64,000 bases of DNA from Candidatus Sungiibacteriota bacterium (GTDB lineage: Bacteria > Patescibacteriota > Minisyncoccia > Sungbacterales > HO2-52-23), in the NCBI GenBank assembly GCA_016180435.1, contig JACPBG010000002.1, positions 60,342 to 124,341 of the forward strand, written 5' to 3'. The translations under genes and the position numbers were made by a program. Position 1 is the first letter of the stretch, and each line of letters begins with the position of its first letter. Shown in pieces: positions 15,067-27,186 of this stretch. The notes under the pieces were generated by a model. It did no database searches. It worked only from the letters and a program-made list of their open reading frames with translations, and had not been told where the DNA came from.

Positions 15067-15666
15067 ATGCCAAAGGCAATTAAGAAAAAAATAGAAAGTA
15101 AGCCCGTGGAAAAAGAAGCGGAAACGCCGAAAAAGAAAGTTGAAGAAAAAGAAAATAAGATTAAAACCGCGGTGAAAGTAAAAAAACCTTCTAAACAGGG
15201 GGCAGAAGTTCCGGCACAAGAAATCTCGTCAGGATTCTCGGAACATAAAACGGATAAAGCAGAAAAGCCCAAAAAACCGGAGCGTTATTTTGAGGCGGTG
15301 GGCAGAAGAAAAACCGCAGTGGCTCGCGTGCGGTTATTTACCCGGCCCGGGGACTTTACGGTAAATGGCAGGTTATACAGTTTATATTTTCCGACTTTAA
15401 CGCTCCAGCAAATTATTGAGGATTCGTTGAAGAAAATGAAGCTTTTGGGAAGATTCAGGGTGTCAATTAAGGTCTCCGGCGGAGGAACTCATGCCCAAGC
15501 CGAGGCCATTCGCCACGGACTCGCGCGCTGTTTGGTTAAATTCAATCCGGATTTTCGCAAGCGTTTGCGACGTGCCGGATACATTACACGCGACCCACGC
15601 GCCAAAGAAAGGAAGAAATTCGGCTTGAAAAAGGCGCGTAAAGCTCCGCAGTGGGCGAAGCGGTAA
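15067..15666 (+). CDS. rpsI: 30S ribosomal protein S9 with a Lys/Glu-rich N-terminal extension
   Basis: The S9 core starts at YFEAVGRRKTAVARVRLF and ends RDPRAKERKKFGLKKARKAPQWAKR. About 70 extra N-terminal residues are rich in K, E and P. Confidence 0.9.
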   Translation: MPKAIKKKIESKPVEKEAETPKKKVEEKENKIKTAVKVKKPSKQGAEVPAQEISSGFSEHKTDKAEKPKKPERYFEAVGRRKTAVARVRLFTRPGDFTVNGRLYSLYFPTLTLQQIIEDSLKKMKLLGRFRVSIKVSGGGTHAQAEAIRHGLARCLVKFNPDFRKRLRRAGYITRDPRAKERKKFGLKKARKAPQWAKR

Positions 15667-15807
15667 TTGCGCTCCCCAGACACGCTGTCTGCATCAATGT
15701 TTATGAGGATTTTTGAAAAACACGGGTTCACGACAAAAGTATGAGAAGCGCACAAATAGCACCGCATACGCGGCGTCTTCAGGGATTTGAAAATAACTGA
15801 ATTTGAA

Positions 15808-15845
15808 CAATAGCCGCGATGACCGCGGCTATTGTGTTATTATTA
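15808..15845 (+). terminator. Rho-independent terminator after rpsI
   Basis: CAATAGCCGCG-atgac-CGCGGCTATTG, followed by TGTTATTATT. Confidence 0.7.
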
Positions 15846-15897
15846 CTTCTATGTTACTATTATTTCGGTTCATTTTCATAAATTATGGAGGAAGCAA

Positions 15898-16932
15898 ATG
15901 AGTGATAGGAAAGCACCGTATGACACCAATGAAGGAATTCAGCGTGCCGTCAAAACGTTGCATAAACTTAACGAGTTGGTGGCGAATCGCCATAGGGCTG
16001 GGTATGAAAGACATGAACGACTCAAGGAATTCTATGTCCTTGGACGGTGGCGTACTGACTCTTGTGGCAATTTTGGAAAGATCATCTCTGAGTTTATCCC
16101 GAAATTAAAGTTCCCCCAGATCCCCGACGTTTTAACCAACGAAGAGTTTTGGGCATTCTTGGGGGCGCAAGGGCTTGATGTTGAGAAAACCTTTGTTTCA
16201 AGCGGAATGTCGAACGACCTACCGCCTGATGACATCGTATGTTGTGTTTGCCAGCAGTCGTGGACTATTGAAAATTGCCATGACGTAGTTATCACCCATC
16301 AGCATCAGGATTTTTCATTGTCAGAGTTCGTTGGGAGACAGCTTTGGGAGGTACAACGGGTATACGGTATGCGAATTGATGCTTGCTACCGTATGCAGCC
16401 AGACATTCTTATTCGTAACGATCGATTCATTGATCTACGTCCGGAGCCAGAATTTGAAACGCTCAAAAGGAATGAGCATGGATGGGTGGGCAAAGAAGAT
16501 GGAGTTACGGAAAACTATGTGATTCAGTCAGGTGATGATGGGTTTTTCAACGTCTGGCATTTTCATCATCATGCGTGTAGTCGGAAAAAGCTCGAAGCTG
16601 ATATGCGGCAGCAATTCCGTGATGTACTCACAAAAGCGGGTTTTGCTAACACAATCCTCAAGTCAATTCCGAATCAGTATTGCCCATGTGAGCATTGTGC
16701 TCCGTGGTTCGTGGTACGGACTGAACATGGTACATTTACGATCGGATGGCGAAAGCGCGTCATCAATATCGATTGGAAGGCGACTGGTAAGAACTTTCTG
16801 CCGCTTTTCGACGATCAGGACGTTACGAAAGACAACCACTTGATTCATGCATGGGGTTACGAAAAAGCTACTGAATATTTTACGAGGATTAAGGGGTTTC
16901 TCATTCAGTCCGAGGCGTTAACTCAACGTTAA
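15898..16932 (+). CDS. orphan Cys/His-rich hypothetical protein (344 aa)
   Basis: ATG at 15898 lies 7 nt after GGAGG. The protein has clustered Cys/His motifs (CCVCQQ, HFHHHAC, CPCEHC). The gene is bracketed by terminators at 15808-15845 and 16938-16968. Confidence 0.55.
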   Translation: MSDRKAPYDTNEGIQRAVKTLHKLNELVANRHRAGYERHERLKEFYVLGRWRTDSCGNFGKIISEFIPKLKFPQIPDVLTNEEFWAFLGAQGLDVEKTFVSSGMSNDLPPDDIVCCVCQQSWTIENCHDVVITHQHQDFSLSEFVGRQLWEVQRVYGMRIDACYRMQPDILIRNDRFIDLRPEPEFETLKRNEHGWVGKEDGVTENYVIQSGDDGFFNVWHFHHHACSRKKLEADMRQQFRDVLTKAGFANTILKSIPNQYCPCEHCAPWFVVRTEHGTFTIGWRKRVINIDWKATGKNFLPLFDDQDVTKDNHLIHAWGYEKATEYFTRIKGFLIQSEALTQR

Positions 16933-16937
16933 ACAAG

Positions 16938-16968
16938 ACTGCCTGGCTCTGCCAGCAGTTTTTATTTT
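16938..16968 (+). terminator. Rho-independent terminator after the Cys/His-rich ORF
   Basis: ACTGCCTGGC-tct-GCCAGCAGT, followed by TTTTATTTT. Confidence 0.7.
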
Positions 16969-17136
16969 CAAAAACCTAAAGTCCACCACGCCTCAAAGCA
17001 TTGCAGTGGGCGAAGAGATAGACTAGCTTTCGTATGTTGACCCCAAAGACCGAACTAAAAAGTTTGGTCTTTTGGGTGAGGGGTAGGCGGGGAAGACCGA
17101 AATATTCTTGAGTCTTGGGTGGGGAAAAGCCCCTAC

Positions 17137-17190
17137 TTGACAAATTACCGGGATTCCCGGTAAGATTAATTTAATATCTAATTCCCGGTA
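17137..17190 (+). promoter_or_regulatory. promoter with an embedded 19-bp perfect palindrome (operator-like) plus a third half-site
   Basis: TTGACA (17137-42), 18-nt spacer, TAAGAT (17161-66). The palindrome TTACCGGGA-T-TCCCGGTAA spans 17145-17163. A further TTCCCGGTA lies at 17182-17190, just before the ATG at 17194. Confidence 0.6.
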
Positions 17191-17193
17191 TTT

Positions 17194-18156
17194 ATGAAAA
17201 TATATCTTCCCCATAGTGCATTTTTAGGGAATATTGATCCATTCCTGGCGGCCTTTGACCCTAGCCATAAGGAAAAGCTCGAAATTACCGCTAATAAAAA
17301 TTGGATTTTTGTTCACCCCGTTGTATTAGCAATGGTAGCGGCGTTAGGTTTAACAGTTTATCGAAAAAATATTAAATGTGAAAAGATAGTGGCACGTTCG
17401 GGTCACTACCTTGAAAGGATGGGTTTATTCAAATTTCTTGATATTAAATCAGGGATGAAGATAACCGAACACGATCCATCGGGGCGATTCGTTCCACTAA
17501 CACAGATAAAAACCTCTGAACAACTCACAAAGTTTCTAACCGAAATGATTCCACTGCTTCATTTAGAACCTCGACATGCCGAACCAATCAAATATATTAT
17601 TAGTGAATTGGTGAGAAACGTGTTAGAGCACGCTCGTGCACCACAAGGAGCTATCGTATCTGCTCAATATCATGCAAAAAATAAAACAATTCGCATAGGA
17701 ATAGTTGATCGTGGTAGTGGTATAAAAAGCACAATTAATCAATCATGGGATGCAAGTAATGATCTTGAGGCTATTAAGTTGGCACTTATGCCGGGAGTTA
17801 CAGGAACTACAAAAAGAGAAGGCGGAACAGAACAAAATGCTGGAGCAGGTTTATTTTTTATTAAATCAATTGCTTATGTGAATCGTAATTTTTTTATGAT
17901 CTATAGCGGAAACGCAATGTATAAACTTCTGAAAAGAAGTGGCGCTAAAAAAATTATGCTTCATGCTAACCCCAATCTTGACAGACACTCAGAAAGAAAT
18001 AACTTACCTTATTGGGATGGTACGGCGGTGGGTGTAGATATTTCTTTAGATACTACACAAGAATTTACTGCACTTCTTGATCTTATAAGAGATACTTACT
18101 CGGAGGCAGTTAAAGAGCGTAAGCGTAATAGATATAAAAGGGCTAAATTTATTTAA
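17194..18156 (+). CDS. GHKL/Bergerat-fold ATPase (HATPase_c-like), with no DHp/HisKA domain
   Basis: N box is ELVRNVLEHA, G1 box is VDRGSGI and G2 box is GAGLFFIKS. The unrecognised N-terminal region is about 120 aa. It resembles anti-sigma serine kinases (SpoIIAB/RsbW type). Confidence 0.7.
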   Translation: MKIYLPHSAFLGNIDPFLAAFDPSHKEKLEITANKNWIFVHPVVLAMVAALGLTVYRKNIKCEKIVARSGHYLERMGLFKFLDIKSGMKITEHDPSGRFVPLTQIKTSEQLTKFLTEMIPLLHLEPRHAEPIKYIISELVRNVLEHARAPQGAIVSAQYHAKNKTIRIGIVDRGSGIKSTINQSWDASNDLEAIKLALMPGVTGTTKREGGTEQNAGAGLFFIKSIAYVNRNFFMIYSGNAMYKLLKRSGAKKIMLHANPNLDRHSERNNLPYWDGTAVGVDISLDTTQEFTALLDLIRDTYSEAVKERKRNRYKRAKFI

Positions 18157-18161
18157 ATATT

Positions 18162-18449
18162 ATGGTTACTATCGAACTTTTTCCCTTAGTGGGGGGCTTT
18201 GCGGAAAACAAGGATATTGCAAGAGACATAAGACGAGACCAAATTCTTCCAGCTCTGAAGAATGGAGAAAGTGTTGTCTTGGATTTTAGTGGCATAGAAT
18301 CTACAACACAATCTTTCGTTCACTCCTTAATTAGTGATGTAATGAGGGAATACGGGAGTGACGTTATGGATAAATTAGTATTTAAAAATTGCAGTGAAAC
18401 CATACAAAAAATCATCAGTATAGTTGTGGACTATATGCAGCAAACATAA
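18162..18449 (+). CDS. STAS-like small protein (DUF4325-like)
   Basis: 95 aa with VVLDFSGIESTTQSFVHSLISDV, resembling the STAS / anti-sigma-antagonist core. It starts 5 nt after the ATPase stop. Confidence 0.6.
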   Translation: MVTIELFPLVGGFAENKDIARDIRRDQILPALKNGESVVLDFSGIESTTQSFVHSLISDVMREYGSDVMDKLVFKNCSETIQKIISIVVDYMQQT

Positions 18450-18540
18450 TTTGTCTCAGTTAAAGACGTATTACGGTTCGCCCTGCGGAATTTTTTATAC
18501 GGACTTTTTATTTTCTCGCGTAAATTTTATTTGAAAAAAC

Positions 18541-18571
18541 GCGAAAATAAAATGTCATCCGAAAGGATGAC
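18541..18571 (-). terminator. Rho-independent terminator for 18591-19148 (minus strand)
   Basis: GTCATCC-tttc-GGATGAC, then ATTTTATTTT on the minus strand. Confidence 0.6.
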
Positions 18572-18590
18572 GTTTCTATATAGATACGCC

Positions 18591-19148
18591 CTAATGATAT
18601 GGAGAAAATGTCGCCTCTTTTAATCGCCAGTGTAATTTTATTCCCGCTTGATCTTCCGCAAAAATATCTTTCACGAAGTTGTCGAAACGAGCCGAGAATG
18701 GATACTTTTGCAAAGTAAGGTCGGCCAGAAGATGCAGCTTGTCTATCGGAAAGCGCTTCAGGCAAAATACATATGCCTCGGCAATGTCTGATCTTGAGCA
18801 TCCCTCGTCCCTTTCCCGCGGCCAGATACGATGCAGTACTGAAATCATCTTCAGTTTAAATTCGGAGTTTCCGAACCGCAAAAGAAAAAGAAGGAGCTGG
18901 CGGATTGTTCCTGCAAAAAAGATTTCCCAGCTCCTGCTTTTTCGTGCGGCTGAACCTTGTTTATAAAGACCCAATTTCCACCATAGTTCGGCGGGTCTGC
19001 TGTCCGGCATTTTCAGCACTTTCCATTGATATAACATCCAGTCAAGAACGCCGGGAACTGCAACCTCTTTTTGATAGCAGATTTTTTCTAAATCATGAAG
19101 CGCCAGTGGATACTTCTTTTTAAAAGTAGCACTTGTATGCCAAGGCAT
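18591..19148 (-). CDS. hypothetical protein (185 aa)
   Basis: Clean ORF followed by a terminator hairpin (18554-18571) and a T-run on the minus strand. I recognise no family. Confidence 0.5.
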   Translation of the reverse strand: MPWHTSATFKKKYPLALHDLEKICYQKEVAVPGVLDWMLYQWKVLKMPDSRPAELWWKLGLYKQGSAARKSRSWEIFFAGTIRQLLLFLLRFGNSEFKLKMISVLHRIWPRERDEGCSRSDIAEAYVFCLKRFPIDKLHLLADLTLQKYPFSARFDNFVKDIFAEDQAGIKLHWRLKEATFSPYH

Positions 19149-19274
19149 TTATTTATCTCCTATAGCTGGTATGAGCTTCACACAAGATAACAAAAAAACG
19201 TTATTTTGTCAATCTTGCAAAATAGTACAGATTATGCTATTTTAGTTTTAGTTCATTTTTCGCGTAGGTGCAAT

Positions 19275-19514
19275 ATGTCTAGTTGGCTGGATACGGAAAA
19301 AGGTCAAGAATTTTTCAAAAAAGCCTTTGAGGTTGCCGATTTGCCGGAGGTTGATGGAGATGTCTTGGAGCAAGGCACATACACCAACCGTCAAATCGCC
19401 GAAAAAGCCGGAAGCCCAGAAAAATTGCTGTCATTGCTTATGAATGTATCCGGTGATCGGGCGACGAAAAGATCGATCCTTAGTTTCGCCGTGGAAATGG
19501 ATTTAGAAGATTAA
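19275..19514 (+). CDS. small acidic hypothetical protein (79 aa)
   Basis: ATG at 19275 follows AGGTG. A terminator follows at 19530-19560. Confidence 0.35.
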   Translation: MSSWLDTEKGQEFFKKAFEVADLPEVDGDVLEQGTYTNRQIAEKAGSPEKLLSLLMNVSGDRATKRSILSFAVEMDLED

Positions 19515-19529
19515 GTTTAGTAAGTTTTA

Positions 19530-19560
19530 CCGCATGGTTTGCCCTGCGGCTTTTTTATTT
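19530..19560 (+). terminator. terminator hairpin between convergent genes
   Basis: CCGCATGG-tttg-CCCTGCGG (one mismatch), followed by CTTTTTTATTT. Confidence 0.6.
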
Positions 19561-21375
19561 AATAAACCGTTCCGCCTGCAGGGACCAAAGGCGTTTATAA
19601 ATTCCGCCGCGTGCGATTAAATCCAAATGTGTTCCTTCTTCCGCTATTTTTCCGCGGTCTATTACTATAATTCGATCCATCTGCATGATGGTGGAAAGGC
19701 GATGGGCAATTACGATCGCGGTTTTTTTCTTAAGCAAATTTTTTAAGGCATCCTGAATCAGCGCCTCTACTTCCGAGTCCAAACTTGAGGTTGCTTCGTC
19801 TAAAACCAAAATCGGCGTGTTGGCGAGGATGGCCCGCGCAATTGCTACTCTTTGCCGTTCTCCGCCGGAAAGTTTTACTCCGCGTTCTCCCACGTATGTG
19901 TCATAGCCATAAGGAAGCCGTGAAATAAATTCATGGCAGTGCGCTTTTTGGGCCGCATCCATGATCTCTTTTTCGGTCGCATTCAGGCGTCCGTAGCGTA
20001 TATTTTCGGTAAGGGTGCGGTGGAATAAAATGGTATCTTGCGGCACCAGCGCAACGGATGTGCGTATGCTGTCTTGCGTTACTTCGGCAATGTTTTGCCC
20101 GTCAATCATTATTTTTCCATTATTTATATCATGGAAACGCAAAAGAAGCGTTACCACCGTGGTTTTTCCGGCGCCGGATGATCCGACCAGCGCAATTTTT
20201 TCTCCGGGCTTGACGCGTAAACTGAAATTTTCAAGCACTTTGCGCTTATCATGAAATCCGAAAGTAACATTTTCAAATTCAACCATACCCCGGGAAACCG
20301 CAAGTTTTTTTGCGGAAGGCGCATCTTTTATATCCGGAGGTGTATTTAAAATTTCCACCATTTCAGCCGCATCGGCAAGCGACTCATAAACTCGGCGCAC
20401 CACCCGGCCAAAGTCCCAGATTCTGTGAAATAGCACGATCAAATACCCTTGAATCAGGGCAAAATCTCCGACGGTAACCTGGCCGCTTGACCAGAGCCGG
20501 ATCCAGGCATAAAACAAACCCACTTCAATTGCGATCATGAGAAGCGCTTGAATCCCGTCAGCTGCTTCTCCGATGCCCCATCCCCAAAAACGCAGGCGTT
20601 TTAATTCATTCATGACGTTACGGTAAATAGTTTTTTCATGATCATAATTGGAAAATAGTTTTATGGTAATGACGTTAGTCAGGGCGTCGGAAAGCGTTCC
20701 GGTTGCTTCCGAGTCCTTTTCGGCCCGGGCCCGGTCATATTTTAATTTCCAGCCCGCGATAAAATAATAGATGACTCCAAAGAGCAAAATCCAGATTGCC
20801 AAAGCAATTCCGAGGACGATGTGGCGTTTGAAAAGAACAATAAGTATCCCGGTAACTATGACAAAAAGCGGAATGATGCTGAATAAAATCTGATCGGTTA
20901 TCTCCTCAAACGAACGGGACAGGCGCGCCACCTTTCTTACCAGCGATCCGGTGAAATTGTTTGTAAAGAAGCGGTGCGAGTGCCCGAGTAGATTTGAGAA
21001 AGCGGTCAGGGACAGGTCATTCATCACGTTGGCCCGCATATATATATTTGCTATGCCGAACAGACGATGTATGGTCCAGCGCGATATTTCCAAAGCCGCG
21101 ATAATGCCGAGGATCCACATGAGTTGGCGGTTGATTTCTGCCGCTTGAAGCGCCGTATTCGTAACCGTGTCAAGAAACATTTTTAAGAACCAGGGCATGG
21201 TTACCGCAATAATCTGCATCGCGATTGCGGACAAGAAGACCACAATCGATGTCCCGGGATATTTTCGGGCGTGTTCCCAAAATACCCGCCATATCAGGCG
21301 AAGTGTATGGCGGTTTAATTCCGGCTTTTTTATTTTGGCGGATGCCAATTGCGTCATAACTCGATTTTTTTCCAT
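19555..21375 (-). CDS. ABC transporter, fused permease/ATP-binding protein (MsbA-like exporter)
   Basis: Walker A is GSSGAGKTT, the signature motif is LSGGERQRVAIARA and Walker B is ILVLDEATSSLD. The N-terminal half is a 6-TM-like domain. Confidence 0.9.
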   Translation of the reverse strand: MEKNRVMTQLASAKIKKPELNRHTLRLIWRVFWEHARKYPGTSIVVFLSAIAMQIIAVTMPWFLKMFLDTVTNTALQAAEINRQLMWILGIIAALEISRWTIHRLFGIANIYMRANVMNDLSLTAFSNLLGHSHRFFTNNFTGSLVRKVARLSRSFEEITDQILFSIIPLFVIVTGILIVLFKRHIVLGIALAIWILLFGVIYYFIAGWKLKYDRARAEKDSEATGTLSDALTNVITIKLFSNYDHEKTIYRNVMNELKRLRFWGWGIGEAADGIQALLMIAIEVGLFYAWIRLWSSGQVTVGDFALIQGYLIVLFHRIWDFGRVVRRVYESLADAAEMVEILNTPPDIKDAPSAKKLAVSRGMVEFENVTFGFHDKRKVLENFSLRVKPGEKIALVGSSGAGKTTVVTLLLRFHDINNGKIMIDGQNIAEVTQDSIRTSVALVPQDTILFHRTLTENIRYGRLNATEKEIMDAAQKAHCHEFISRLPYGYDTYVGERGVKLSGGERQRVAIARAILANTPILVLDEATSSLDSEVEALIQDALKNLLKKKTAIVIAHRLSTIMQMDRIIVIDRGKIAEEGTHLDLIARGGIYKRLWSLQAERFIK

Positions 21376-22460
21376 AATTTGTTTCTTCTTAAATATATGG
21401 ACCTTGGATAATCGGCGGCAGTCACCAGTTCATCAATTCTTTCACTGATCAGCTCGCCGGTATTTCTTCCTCCGCGTCCGTCAATCTCGGTAAAATATAC
21501 TCCGTCTTTGGTGAGCATGACAATATGAGCGTCGTCGTAATAATACCAGCGCGCATCCAGAATCGGTTCCTGCAGGGTTATAATCTGTTCTATTAGGCCC
21601 TTTTTTTGAAACGGCTGGTATTCATTATCCTGCAGCCATAATATTTCTATACTGTTTTCTTTTTTTAAGATAAGTTTTTCTCCTTCCGTATCAAATGAAA
21701 TTGCTTTAGCGCCTCCGGCCAGGGGTTTCAATTCATTGGTTTCACTTTCTATTATAAAAAGTCCTCCGCCGGCATCCAAAATCGCCAATTCGCTGCGCGG
21801 CGATATGAAAAATTGCGCCGGTATTTTGTCAGAAAGGAAAAATCCCGGTCGGCCCAGCGTTTCAATCATCCCGTTACTATTTAATTTTGCCGCAAAACCG
21901 GCTTCGGTAATAAAAAATATAGCGCCGTCGATATAGGCAAATGAATTCACTCCGGGTGTCAGCACGGTTGTCGTGGCGCGGCCGTTTAGCACGCGGTCTT
22001 CAACCAGATTGTTTTTTTTATCAAGCCGAATTTTACGCGCGGAAGTGGTAGTCGCCAATCCCAAAGATATGATTTCGTCGCGTGTTGCCGTGGCGGTCAT
22101 GACCGGTGAGGGGATCAGGATGACATTTCGTATTTCGGTTACGGCGGCTTTTTCCACGGTTACGGTTTTTGACCAAGGCCGGTAATTTTCCTTTTCCAGA
22201 CGTAGCAGATGTATGCCGGGCCTGATTTCGGTCAATAGCGCCCCGCCGGAAAAAATTGATGTCTCTTTCTGAAATTCGTTGTCCAGAAAAATTGAGATGC
22301 TTGCGATCGTGGATTTTATAAAAATACCGCCGCGCTGCTCCAGCGAGCGTGATGATAAATTGATCGTATAGCCGAGCGAATGAGCAATTACTATCGGCAA
22401 AAGCACGATAAATGCGGCCAGCAGGAGATAAAAAATTTTTTTTCTGGTTGCCAGCTTCAT
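21354..22460 (-). CDS. membrane-anchored protein with a PEGA-like domain
   Basis: N-terminal TM helix, then IFLDNEFQKETS...GIHLLRLEKENYRPWSKTVTVEKAAVTEI. The stop overlaps the ABC transporter start. Confidence 0.55.
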   Translation of the reverse strand: MKLATRKKIFYLLLAAFIVLLPIVIAHSLGYTINLSSRSLEQRGGIFIKSTIASISIFLDNEFQKETSIFSGGALLTEIRPGIHLLRLEKENYRPWSKTVTVEKAAVTEIRNVILIPSPVMTATATRDEIISLGLATTTSARKIRLDKKNNLVEDRVLNGRATTTVLTPGVNSFAYIDGAIFFITEAGFAAKLNSNGMIETLGRPGFFLSDKIPAQFFISPRSELAILDAGGGLFIIESETNELKPLAGGAKAISFDTEGEKLILKKENSIEILWLQDNEYQPFQKKGLIEQIITLQEPILDARWYYYDDAHIVMLTKDGVYFTEIDGRGGRNTGELISERIDELVTAADYPRSIYLRRNKLWKKIEL

Positions 22461-25161: not shown

Positions 25162-25812
25162 ATGATAATAAAAAAATTTTTACATTCCTGTATTTTACTT
25201 GAGGAACAAGGGCGAAGACTCCTTATTGACCCCGGTGATATGTCGTTTTTCGAGAAGAAAATATCACCCGAAGATATCGGTGGGGCGGATGTTATAGTTT
25301 TTACTCATAGGCATAGTGACCATTTAGATCTAGACATATTAAAAAAATTTTTAAGTTTGAAACAAGCTAAAATTTTGGCTCATGAAGAAATTGGTAAAAA
25401 ACTAAAGGAGTCGGATATTCCATACACATCGATATCTGCGGGTGAGACGAAAATAGTTGAAGGATTTACTATCGAAACAATTGAGGCGCCGCATGGACAT
25501 GGTTTAAGTGTGCCCTCGCCGTATAATCTCGGCTTTAAAATAGACAATGCATTTTTTCATCCCGGCGACTGTGTCTCGTTAGAAAACATTGAAACTAAAG
25601 TTTTGGCACTTCCCGTTATGGGTTCTTGGATGCGTTTTCCGGAGGCAGTATTATTTGCTAAACGAGTAAAGCCACAGTATGTAATTCCTATTCATGATGC
25701 ACTTATTGGGGACGTATTCATTGATAGGGTTTACGACTATTATCGAGGGCCATTAGAAAAAGACGGCATTTCCTTTTATCAGCTTGGATTAGATAATTCG
25801 CTTGAGATATAA
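25162..25812 (+). CDS. MBL-fold metallo-hydrolase
   Basis: HxHxDH motif (THRHSDHLD), with downstream His/Asp ligand positions. Confidence 0.75.
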   Translation: MIIKKFLHSCILLEEQGRRLLIDPGDMSFFEKKISPEDIGGADVIVFTHRHSDHLDLDILKKFLSLKQAKILAHEEIGKKLKESDIPYTSISAGETKIVEGFTIETIEAPHGHGLSVPSPYNLGFKIDNAFFHPGDCVSLENIETKVLALPVMGSWMRFPEAVLFAKRVKPQYVIPIHDALIGDVFIDRVYDYYRGPLEKDGISFYQLGLDNSLEI

Positions 25813-25909
25813 CCCCATGTCGCTAACATTAAATTGAATACTTGGAGAAAAGAATGGTTTGCTGAAGACAGCCGTCTTCGGTGGGTAGTATTAAAATATT
25901 TTAAATTTT

Positions 25910-26302
25910 ATGTCGCGTGAAGGATTACAACCAATTGTTCCGGAATCCAATCCGGCGGTTAAGAAATTAAGCCCGCATGAGATAAGTGCGCAAAAAGTGC
26001 GTAAAGAATTTAATGAGAACGTGCAAGATGTTTTACCGCTGGTTAAACGTGCGCACTCTTTGAAAGAGCTTTGGCAAGCAGTTGATACCATAGAAAAATG
26101 GAGGAGTGACGTAGATCTTGCCAAAGATCAGGGCCAAGATATACCAGATCCGCGCGAGGACGAACAAGTAATGAAAGAATATTTGCTTCGATATACGTCA
26201 GGACCGCATCGGGATATTTCTCCGATTTTTAAAGAAGGAAGAAATATATTAAAAGACGAAGTCGCGAAAAAAATTAAAGAACTGGGATTATCTGAGAAAT
26301 AG
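25910..26302 (+). CDS. hypothetical protein
   Basis: 130-aa ORF. I recognise no motif. Confidence 0.4.
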   Translation: MSREGLQPIVPESNPAVKKLSPHEISAQKVRKEFNENVQDVLPLVKRAHSLKELWQAVDTIEKWRSDVDLAKDQGQDIPDPREDEQVMKEYLLRYTSGPHRDISPIFKEGRNILKDEVAKKIKELGLSEK

Positions 26303-26322
26303 TCAAAGAATTCCTCAATTTT

Positions 26323-26703
26323 ATGTCTGGAGGAAATCCATTTAAAGGATTAAAACTTAAACCAGCGCAGGAGAAAGAAGAAGTTAAAGAACAACCGGCT
26401 CCGGCGCCGCGGATTATCACCAAGCCAAAAAAATATTTGGAATCCGTGGGCATTACTGATTATACCTACGAAGAAAAAGCGGACGGAGTGCATTTTTATA
26501 TTAAGTTGTCCCCGGAAGACATGGAGGAAAAAATAAAACAAGCTCGATATGTTATTAATGCGCCGCCGTTAACTCCATTTCAAAGAGAAAAGTTGTTGCC
26601 ATTTGTAAAATTGATGAAACAGGATAGGAAGCTTGATTGTAAAGTTTTAGACGGAAATGCGTCCCGTCCCAATTTATTGGAGGTAGTTGTCTTTAAAAAG
26701 TAA
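26323..26703 (+). CDS. hypothetical protein
   Basis: 126-aa ORF. I recognise no motif. Confidence 0.4.
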   Translation: MSGGNPFKGLKLKPAQEKEEVKEQPAPAPRIITKPKKYLESVGITDYTYEEKADGVHFYIKLSPEDMEEKIKQARYVINAPPLTPFQREKLLPFVKLMKQDRKLDCKVLDGNASRPNLLEVVVFKK

Positions 26704-26760
26704 ACCACCCGACTGGATGTCGGGCGGCGATATGATGGGAAAGGATGGCGGGTTTTGTGA

Positions 26761-27153
26761 TCACGAGGCGGTGATATTTAGAAAAAATCCGTCGGGATGA
26801 TGCGTGATAGAAAGACCCGGGCCAGTGGTGCGAAGGAAAAGGTTTCCTTCAAGATCGGGATTCTCGGCAAACGTTTTACGCGTTTTCCGTTCAAGCACTG
26901 GCAACCTGCATAGGTCTGGAATATCCAGGCCGGTAGCGCCATCTATCACGCTTAGATAGAAATCCGCACCATCCCTTTCTATCCGTATGTTCGCATCTCC
27001 ATCGGTAAAAATAGTGACTGCGTCTATACCTATTGTAGGAGAGAGCACGCGATGGAGTGATGTTGCGACCGCATCCGTTCCTCCCATCAAAACCAGTTGT
27101 CCGTCCTCGTCCTTAAACTGGGATAATATAGCCCTGAGATTTGTGAGATCCAT
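26761..27153 (-). CDS. hypothetical protein, paralog of 31390-31875
   Basis: ATG at 27153 follows AGGAGG. A consensus promoter lies upstream and a terminator downstream. It shares the motif TDGDAxIxIxR..FYxxVxD with the other paralog. Confidence 0.55.
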   Translation of the reverse strand: MDLTNLRAILSQFKDEDGQLVLMGGTDAVATSLHRVLSPTIGIDAVTIFTDGDANIRIERDGADFYLSVIDGATGLDIPDLCRLPVLERKTRKTFAENPDLEGNLFLRTTGPGLSITHHPDGFFLNITAS

Positions 27154-27186
27154 ATGTAAAAGTCCTCCTCTGACTAAGATACCCAA

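Follow-up and report, generated by a model that had tools for sequence, protein, structure and literature searches.

A putative kinase–STAS switch as the foreign part of a probable mosaic behind rpsI in Candidatus Sungiibacteriota

Between the ribosomal protein gene rpsI and a gene for an ABC exporter, a bacterium of the Candidatus Sungiibacteriota (assembly GCA_016180435.1, contig JACPBG010000002.1) carries five open reading frames, ORF1 to ORF5. They sit in a 64,000-nucleotide stretch of that contig (positions 60,342 to 124,341), the whole of which was analyzed and is called the window here; coordinates count from its first letter. The products of ORF1, ORF2 and ORF4 match NCBI proteins of a metagenome-assembled Candidatus Sungbacteria genome (Candidate Phyla Radiation/Patescibacteria) at 100% identity. 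A sequence-only reading had found the five ORFs, which indeed occupy 15898-19514 in front of a minus-strand exporter, and had taken them for a single AT-rich island of horizontally acquired conflict or defense cargo. Our analysis leads elsewhere. We consider it probable that the interval (15670-19560) is a mosaic at a recombination-prone spot 3′ of rpsI, not one island, and that its foreign part is a two-gene cassette whose products would work together as a switch. The cassette consists of ORF2, which encodes a predicted kinase of the GHKL type (hereafter K), and ORF3, which encodes a STAS-like protein of the Pfam family DUF4325 (hereafter S), as the earlier reading of the pair as GHKL ATPase plus STAS-like protein had it.

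Composition and gene order

The low GC content of the interval, which had been judged AT-rich throughout, turns out to be the property of two genes. GC is 0.412 across 15670-19560 and 0.445 across the window, and the deficit is due only to ORF2 and ORF3. The 69 genes called in the window average 0.445 in GC and 0.439 at third codon positions (GC3); ORF2, with a GC of 0.371, has the lowest GC3 of them all (0.262, z -3.0), and ORF3 comes to 0.368. ORF1 (0.445), ORF4 (0.441) and the exporter gene (0.467) look native, and ORF5 stands at 0.414. Plotted over 100 nucleotides (nt) at a time, GC stays low between about 17,130 and 18,620, and the only compositionally foreign stretch, a piece of 1.5 kb, is roughly 17,130-18,545, at 0.37 against 0.445. 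The deviant composition of a classical island is therefore not a feature of the whole interval; ORF2 and ORF3 alone deviate. Low GC also occurs elsewhere, since the window holds other kilobases that are equally GC-poor (25-26 kb and 35-36 kb).

Gene order tells a similar tale. In the window it runs rpoA, rplQ, rplM, rpsI, ORF1 to ORF5, ABC exporter, PEGA-domain protein, murA and mreB, a layout shared by nine contigs of one sequencing-run set, which represent the same population. For comparison we used 79 loci, labeled L0xx, among them a distant relative (L063) and a sister lineage (L064-L067). L063 reads rpsM-rpsK-rpsD-rpoA-rplQ-rplM-rpsI-ORF1-DUF2238-(a PEGA-like protein of 445 amino acids)-murA-mreB-holB, with neither ORF2 to ORF5 nor the ABC exporter at this locus. 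Between L063 and the window, protein identity is 78% for ORF1, 61% for RpsI, 60% for MreB, 57% for RpoA, 54% for MurA and 44% for both L13 and L17. An exporter that is absent from L063 does not make the conserved border it had been taken for, and rpsI followed directly by the exporter, the arrangement anticipated in syntenic genomes, was not seen. The sister lineage preserves the other end: PEGA (71% identical), ABC (81-92%) and a homologue of ORF4 (72%), then a convergent Exo_endo_phos gene, with no K–S pair beside ORF4. To the right of the cassette, homology to this lineage begins again at 18,543, which gives the right border of the insertion; the ORF4 terminator matches positions 3219-3251 of L064 at 32 of 33 nt. 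About 205 bp containing ORF5 are present in the window and missing from L064 and L065.

The span from rplM-rpsI to PEGA-murA is thus a variable spot, and by its synteny with L063 and with L064-L067 the interval combines at least three histories. Apart from the K–S cassette it is ordinary lineage-specific variation. The five genes are not conserved together at this locus in distant relatives, a pattern that would have marked them as core. The borders are as bare as had been described: the 64-kb window contains neither a tRNA nor a tmRNA gene, and the five ORFs are free of integrase domains. No direct repeats flank the interval as a whole, the sole significant repeat, an rpsI tail, bracketing ORF1 only. 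A search of Rfam over 15.5-19.7 kb gave nothing above noise.

The K–S cassette

K has an N-terminal alpha/beta domain, which aligns with the STAS-type domain of VapK-like kinases, followed by a GHKL domain whose ATP-binding motifs are invariant in the family: the N-box (E138, N142), DxGxG (D172-G176) and the glycine-rich stretch (G210-G219). The closest solved structures to its fold are anti-sigma-factor kinases. S is a single STAS-like domain (DUF4325, 4e-16). Our point of comparison was an operon on a Deinococcus plasmid with the order HTH (helix-turn-helix)/ATP-binding/STAS-like/PIN, of the vapKSC type. Aligned with hhalign, the K family matches the Deinococcus kinase over both domains (97.3% probability, E 1.9e-11, 223 columns), with the invariant W37 of K falling on W53 of that VapK-like protein, and the S family matches the Deinococcus VapS-like protein at 95.9% probability. 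The profile of S homologues also matches one solved structure, PDB 9z7o_A, 'Escherichia VapS' (E 1.3e-5). Because the K and S profiles match the Deinococcus operon, and the S profile the VapS structure as well, we take K and S to be homologues of VapK/CapK and VapS/CapS. Searches of the PDB with the single sequences of ORF2 and ORF3 returned nothing, as did the ORF2 family profile; an hhalign comparison of the S family with a SpoIIAA sequence gave no meaningful alignment and was not used.

The pair is also defined by what does not accompany it. K lacks an N-terminal HTH: Pfam finds HATPase domains only, the AlphaFold2 (AF2) model begins directly with the alpha/beta domain, and the alignment to the VapK-like protein starts at residue 7. 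S, at 95 amino acids and with DUF4325 as its only domain, has no winged helix-turn-helix (wHTH) and ends with the STAS domain, where the Deinococcus VapS-like protein runs some 25 residues longer. No PIN domain occurs in the five ORFs, and a tblastn search of the window with the VapC-like protein found nothing meaningful. Downstream of S there is no immune operon here, the next gene being the convergent, native ORF4. In seven independent contexts where K is directly followed by a DUF4325 gene of 95-96 amino acids, no PIN gene comes after S, and neither a sigma factor nor a PP2C phosphatase gene adjoins the pair.

Those seven contexts bear on mobility too. Their flanks are unrelated and mostly housekeeping genes, including FtsK, PheST/TGT and CysRS, and one archaeal contig carries Pus10; the genes downstream of K–S differ in every locus (FtsK, Gmad2, TGT, Emfourin-like and others). 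The search detects 3100 homologues of K; in the best 120, identity is 65-76% and the alignment takes in about 93-100% of the query. Sources named among these 120 are Omnitrophica, WOR-1, Curtiss-, Zambryski-, Pace- and Dojkabacteria, Nanoarchaeota and Diapherotrites, and the pair on the archaeal contig is about 68% identical to ours. Further afield, phage contigs carry a 46%-identical pair flanked by head and tape-measure genes, and pairs about 30% identical (by K) occur at Streptococcus prophage ends and, beside insertion sequence (IS) elements, on an Alicyclobacillus plasmid. PHROGs holds families for K (E 2.5e-25), for S and for a K–S fusion. In 10 of 11 loci the GC of K–S falls below that of the host flank. 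Taken together, these comparisons point to horizontal acquisition of the cassette from a common pool of the Candidate Phyla Radiation (CPR), DPANN archaea, other phyla, phages and plasmids. They also mark K–S as a large and very tightly conserved branch of kinase plus STAS-only pairs, with at least 120 clusters at 65-76% identity.

The promoter travels with the genes. A palindrome, TACCGGGATTCCCGGTA, lies between the -35 and -10 elements in front of K. Across the 79 loci, the form CCGGGAWTCCCGG is confined to the 70 nt ahead of K, where the window, L054, L057, L076 and L077 have it; the last four comprise a WOR-1 locus, two other bacterial loci and an archaeal one, and variants occur in two more. 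In the 64-kb window CCGGGAWTCCCGG occurs once. The 46%-identical phage pair has another palindrome, placed around its -35 element. Since the palindrome accompanies K–S over phyla and domains, it suggests a DNA-binding activity encoded by the cassette, which would mean autoregulation. The hairpin at 17145-17163 had also been a candidate for a terminator-like structure; that was rejected, and the hairpin was re-read as the promoter palindrome.

PADLOC, proposed as a check on the defense island, recognized no known defense system in the interval. Its only notable matches pair ORF2 and ORF3 with the N-terminal part of one DrmA model (34-248 and 323-389 out of 1750 positions), and no helicase is present, so that the DISARM core is lacking. 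The DrmA model itself (PDLC02567) holds K-like and S-like regions in its N-terminal part, and in the phage protein family phrog_5816 the two regions are fused in one protein. Their presence in both suggests that K–S has been reused as a built-in sensor or regulator domain.

Kinship with CapKS and VapKSC

Two systems described together provide the nearest relatives (PMC13373217; Chambers et al., EMBO J 2026). CapK, an HTH-STAS-GHKL protein, phosphorylates the repressor CapS (STAS-wHTH) upon encountering single-stranded DNA after DNA damage and so de-represses an adjacent immune operon, which is why CapK–CapS is called a 'controller of adjacent pathways'. In VapKSC, a toxin–antitoxin and anti-phage system whose VapS–VapC structure is PDB 9z7o, VapK (STAS-GHKL) phosphorylates the antitoxin VapS and thereby frees the PIN toxin VapC, which is blocked by residues 94-116 in the C-terminal region of VapS (PMC13373217).

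The likeness to VapKSC has several sides. K has the two-domain build of VapK, an N-terminal domain plus GHKL, with homology over both; S is a DUF4325 STAS homologue of VapS; the genes are compact and adjacent, K then S, mobile and AT-rich; and W37/W53 lies near the reported F54 of VapK, to which it may be equivalent. Here, however, there is no VapC or PIN gene, S stops short of the region that blocks VapC, and the position of the acceptor serine is a glutamine. The conserved promoter palindrome has not been described for vapKSC, and the K–S family is very large and tightly conserved in CPR and DPANN. With CapKS our cassette shares the pairing of a GHKL kinase with a STAS protein, palindromic sites in its own promoter region that suggest autoregulation, and mobile or immune contexts, but not the N-terminal HTH of CapK or the wHTH of CapS. 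Moreover, capKS precedes an immune operon, whereas K–S is followed here by a convergent native gene and has flanks that vary from genome to genome.

Older paradigms fit in part. The single-domain STAS partner and the anti-sigma-factor-type GHKL fold of K recall SpoIIAB–SpoIIAA, and the former also RsbW–RsbV and SiaB–SiaC, but K is longer by an N-terminal domain and a basic C-terminal extension, the pair has neither a sigma factor nor a phosphatase gene beside it and occurs in archaea, phages and plasmids, and the canonical phosphoserine position is not conserved in S. Type II toxin–antitoxin systems offer the two-gene operon, the palindrome overlapping the promoter, the AT-richness, the promiscuous transfer and the presence on phages and plasmids; they differ from K–S in that neither K nor S has a recognizable DNA-binding fold and toxicity is only proposed here. 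We know of no GHKL-kinase toxin. With neither PIN toxin nor wHTH nor downstream immune operon, K–S appears to be a new, effector-less, stand-alone variant of the CapKS/VapKSC kind.

Neighbors of the cassette

ORF1, once called an orphan, has 228 homologues, about 40-78% identical over nearly the full length and mainly from CPR phyla, with diverged or partial matches in Clostridia, Polyangiaceae, Omnitrophota and metagenome-assembled genomes labeled archaeal. Four invariant residues (C115, C118, H224 and C227) form a CCHC pattern that may be a zinc site. The protein matches nothing in Pfam, NCBIfam, PADLOC or PHROG, no sequence in the PDB and no viral fold at E <= 0.001, and no neighbor recurs in 42 loci. 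That ORF1 might generally be linked to ribosomal genes was rejected, as rpsI or rplM lies within 8 kb in 0 of 47 loci; it adjoins rpsI only here and in L063.

At the DNA level, the ORF1 unit (15832-16963) and its L063 counterpart share 75% identity, and the identity of the protein lies far above that of the flanking housekeeping proteins (44-61%). The unit is bracketed by two copies of the rpsI 3′ end, a direct repeat whose 13-mer core, GCAGTGGGCGAAG, occurs twice in 64 kb against an expectation of 0.04. The functional copy encodes KAPQWAKR-stop, the relic KALQWAKR-stop, with synonymous changes besides. The relic looks like the scar of a recombination event anchored in rpsI, and we infer that ORF1, a member of a widespread family centered on the CPR, arrived or was replaced by that route. 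In Komeilibacteria an identical ORF1 homologue appears in two loci (L068, 7001-8020; L069, 3828-4847), each time with an adjoining HTH_38 gene (an HTH of the IS30 type) and an acetyltransferase gene. The surroundings differ, Imm5-like and glyoxalase genes in one case and rpsB-tsf-pyrH in the other, which hints that the block moves.

ORF4 comes close to the orphan it had been thought to be: the homologue next to the exporter in L064-L067 is the only one found, and there is no detectable family in Pfam, NCBIfam, PADLOC or PHROG. It is a real gene all the same, because the differences between the two are enriched at third codon positions (38, 28 and 65 at first, second and third positions; 42 of the changed codons are synonymous). 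Native in composition and set beside the exporter in the sister lineage too, ORF4 is probably lineage-specific and resident, with a link to the ABC exporter.

ORF5 has 32 homologues, which make up a small family of proteins or C-terminal domains of about 75 residues with the motif LPEV..LE.GTYTN.QIAE...KRSILSFAV and no Pfam match. Its gene was either gained here or lost in the sister lineage. The domain also forms the C terminus of proteins of 120-210 amino acids with unrelated N termini (P0243-P0263). A role as an acyl-carrier-like protein was considered and dropped, the sole lead being a weak match to a protein with five PP-binding repeats; ORF5 itself has no Pfam PP-binding match.

Features of the interval

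The features are collected in Table 1. The idea that each transcription unit has its own terminator holds for rpsI, ORF1 and ORF4, and a hairpin lies at 19530-19549, after ORF5; the idea is less secure for ORF3, whose terminator is weak (z +0.6).

Table 1. Positions of genes and signals between rpsI and the PEGA-domain gene
Feature	Position	Strand	Remarks
rpsI	15067-15666	+	left flank of the interval
rpsI functional 3′ end, repeat copy 1	15640-15665	+	codes ...KAPQWAKR-stop; 26-nt direct repeat
rpsI intrinsic terminator	15807-15835	+	12-bp stem, then T-rich tail
ORF1 unit	15832-16963	+	leader, coding sequence, terminator
ORF1 coding sequence	15898-16932	+	344 amino acids
ORF1 terminator	16935-16962	+	strong hairpin, then UUUUUAUUUU (U-run); conserved in L063
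Relic rpsI 3′ end, repeat copy 2	16995-17021	+	KALQWAKR-stop; brackets the ORF1 unit
K–S promoter	17137-17190	+	TTGACA-18-TAAGAT
Operator-like palindrome TTACCGGGATTCCCGGTAA	17145-17163	+	between -35 and -10
Extra half-site TTCCCGGTA	17182-17190	+	20 nt downstream of the palindrome
ORF2 (K)	17194-18156	+	320 amino acids
ORF3 (S)	18162-18449	+	95 amino acids; start 5 nt past the ORF2 stop codon
ORF4 terminator	18543-18575 (stem 18554-18571)	-	strong, z -3.6
ORF4	18591-19148	-	185 amino acids
ORF4 promoter	19184-19212	-	TTGACA-17-TATCTT with TG; conserved in the sister lineage
ORF5	19275-19514	+	79 amino acids, acidic
Hairpin between convergent ORF5 and ABC exporter	19530-19549		minus strand, z -3.0; plus strand, followed by a U-run
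ABC exporter	19555-21375	-	right flank; itself in the variable region
PEGA-domain protein	21354-22460	-	beyond the ABC exporter

Several further observations concern the same stretch. The intergenic region between ORF1 and ORF2 (16933-17193) folds far better than shuffled sequence (z -3.8) and belongs to no Rfam family; the fold comprises the ORF1 terminator, a 12-bp hairpin at about 17045-17072 and the promoter palindrome. Two terminator-like sequences, at 18475-18513 and 19536-19560, are alike (GGTTYGCCCTGCGG followed by a T-run; 18 of 21 nt identical). They sit after ORF3 and ORF5 and so bracket ORF4 and ORF5, which may be chance or a shared type of terminator. RpsI, at 199 amino acids, is extended at its N terminus by about 75 residues rich in Lys and Glu (15067-15300), and its Pfam S9 match spans 79-199; the L063 orthologue has 138 amino acids. 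Away from the interval, a second GC-poor patch (25162-27186) separates mreB from holB, which adjoin in L063. It contains an MBL-fold gene (Lactamase_B_3, GC 0.376), two small ORFs (0.39-0.41) and a minus-strand ORF (0.48), and looks like another small insertion.

Weighing the readings

The claim that all five ORFs form one horizontally acquired defense or conflict island is highly unlikely to be right. It draws on a region that does vary between relatives and is made of several small independent transcription units, on the patchy distribution of ORF1 without conserved neighbors, and on the relic rpsI tail, which points to a recombination event. Against this, ORF1 and ORF4 are native in both GC and GC3, ORF1 stands after rpsI in L063 as well, and ORF4, together with its promoter and terminator, is syntenic with ABC-PEGA in a sister lineage that has no K–S beside it. 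ORF2 to ORF5 occur in 0 of 47 ORF1 loci, no K–S locus carries ORF1, ORF4 or ORF5, and joint travel was seen in none of the 79 loci; nor does PADLOC see a system. What stands of the conflict cargo is ORF2 and ORF3, by composition, homology and mobility; the other ORFs drop out. The mosaic has its own difficulties. The synteny is based on two related lineages only, L063 and L064-L067; no target-site duplication, inverted repeat or recombinase was found at the K–S borders; and the high identity of ORF1 to its L063 counterpart could stem from strong constraint, not transfer. For the switch, the difficulties are that no output effector or partner of K–S was found and that neither Pfam nor, for K, the AF2 model reveals a recognizable DNA-binding domain in K or S. 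In addition, the position of the VapS acceptor serine (S48) is an invariant glutamine, Q50, in ORF3 and seven close homologues, so any phosphorylation of S is conjecture and may not take place. The residues on either side, T49 and S51, are invariant in the close family, and more distant K–S pairs have a serine at the canonical position.

How, then, might K and S work? By analogy with CapKS and VapKSC, K would sense a signal of stress or infection, such as single-stranded DNA, and would act on S by phosphorylation or tight binding, switching an output. The cassette contains no separate effector, and the simplest model is accordingly one akin to toxin–antitoxin systems: S would restrain K, as in a toxin–antitoxin or abortive-infection switch, the K–S complex or one of the partners would repress its own promoter through the palindrome, and a signal such as single-stranded DNA would release K. 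A self-contained, autoregulated switch of this kind seems to us the most likely function. Quite unlikely is an immobile host module for partner switching, of the SpoIIAB/SpoIIAA or RsbW/RsbV type, that controls a host sigma factor or regulator. It would account for the resemblance of K to anti-sigma-factor kinases, for the single STAS domain that S shares with SpoIIAA and for flanks that are often housekeeping genes, but not for seven contexts devoid of sigma factor and PP2C genes, a pair about 68% identical on an archaeal contig, carriage by phages and plasmids, AT-richness relative to the host in 10 of 11 loci or a genomic position that differs with each lineage. Archaea are not known to have sigma factors, and a sigma-factor target is unlikely because the pair is also found in an archaeal genome. 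K–S might alternatively regulate in trans as a sensor like CapKS, with a target operon or effector elsewhere that also bears the palindrome. The palindrome is conserved in the promoter, CapKS acts on adjacent immune operons through palindromic sites (PMC13373217), and K–S-like regions are fused at the N terminus of the DrmA model. We nevertheless think this unlikely: S has no wHTH, the part through which CapS binds DNA; the window contains a single copy of the palindrome, which in all loci is found only upstream of K; and with unrelated flanks in every genome no co-transferred target is evident. Within the preferred reading, that of a self-contained switch, there is a more specific version that we offer tentatively and with considerable doubt. 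K itself would be the effector or toxin, and S, with glutamine at the acceptor position, would be a pseudo-substrate antitoxin; the complex would repress the promoter via TACCGGGATTCCCGGTA, an infection signal such as single-stranded DNA would free K, and the device would work in bacteria and archaea alike.

Perspective

For annotation, the interval carries a caution: unannotated small genes after a conserved operon can mix native, recombined and foreign units. For the biology, the interest lies in the cassette. It was not until 2026 that CapKS and VapKSC were described, as kinase/STAS switches that sense DNA damage and govern phage defense. The K–S branch is common in the ultra-small genomes of CPR and DPANN, with diverged relatives in phages, and keeps its palindrome even in an archaeal host. 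If K–S is autonomous, it would be a minimal signaling or toxin module that operates in more than one domain of life; otherwise its partner would have to be a cell component that is conserved universally. Should K prove to be the toxin and S its pseudo-substrate antitoxin, as in the tentative version above, the pair would represent a new class of kinase-based abortive-infection or toxin–antitoxin module, abundant in CPR and DPANN, organisms with few known defense systems.

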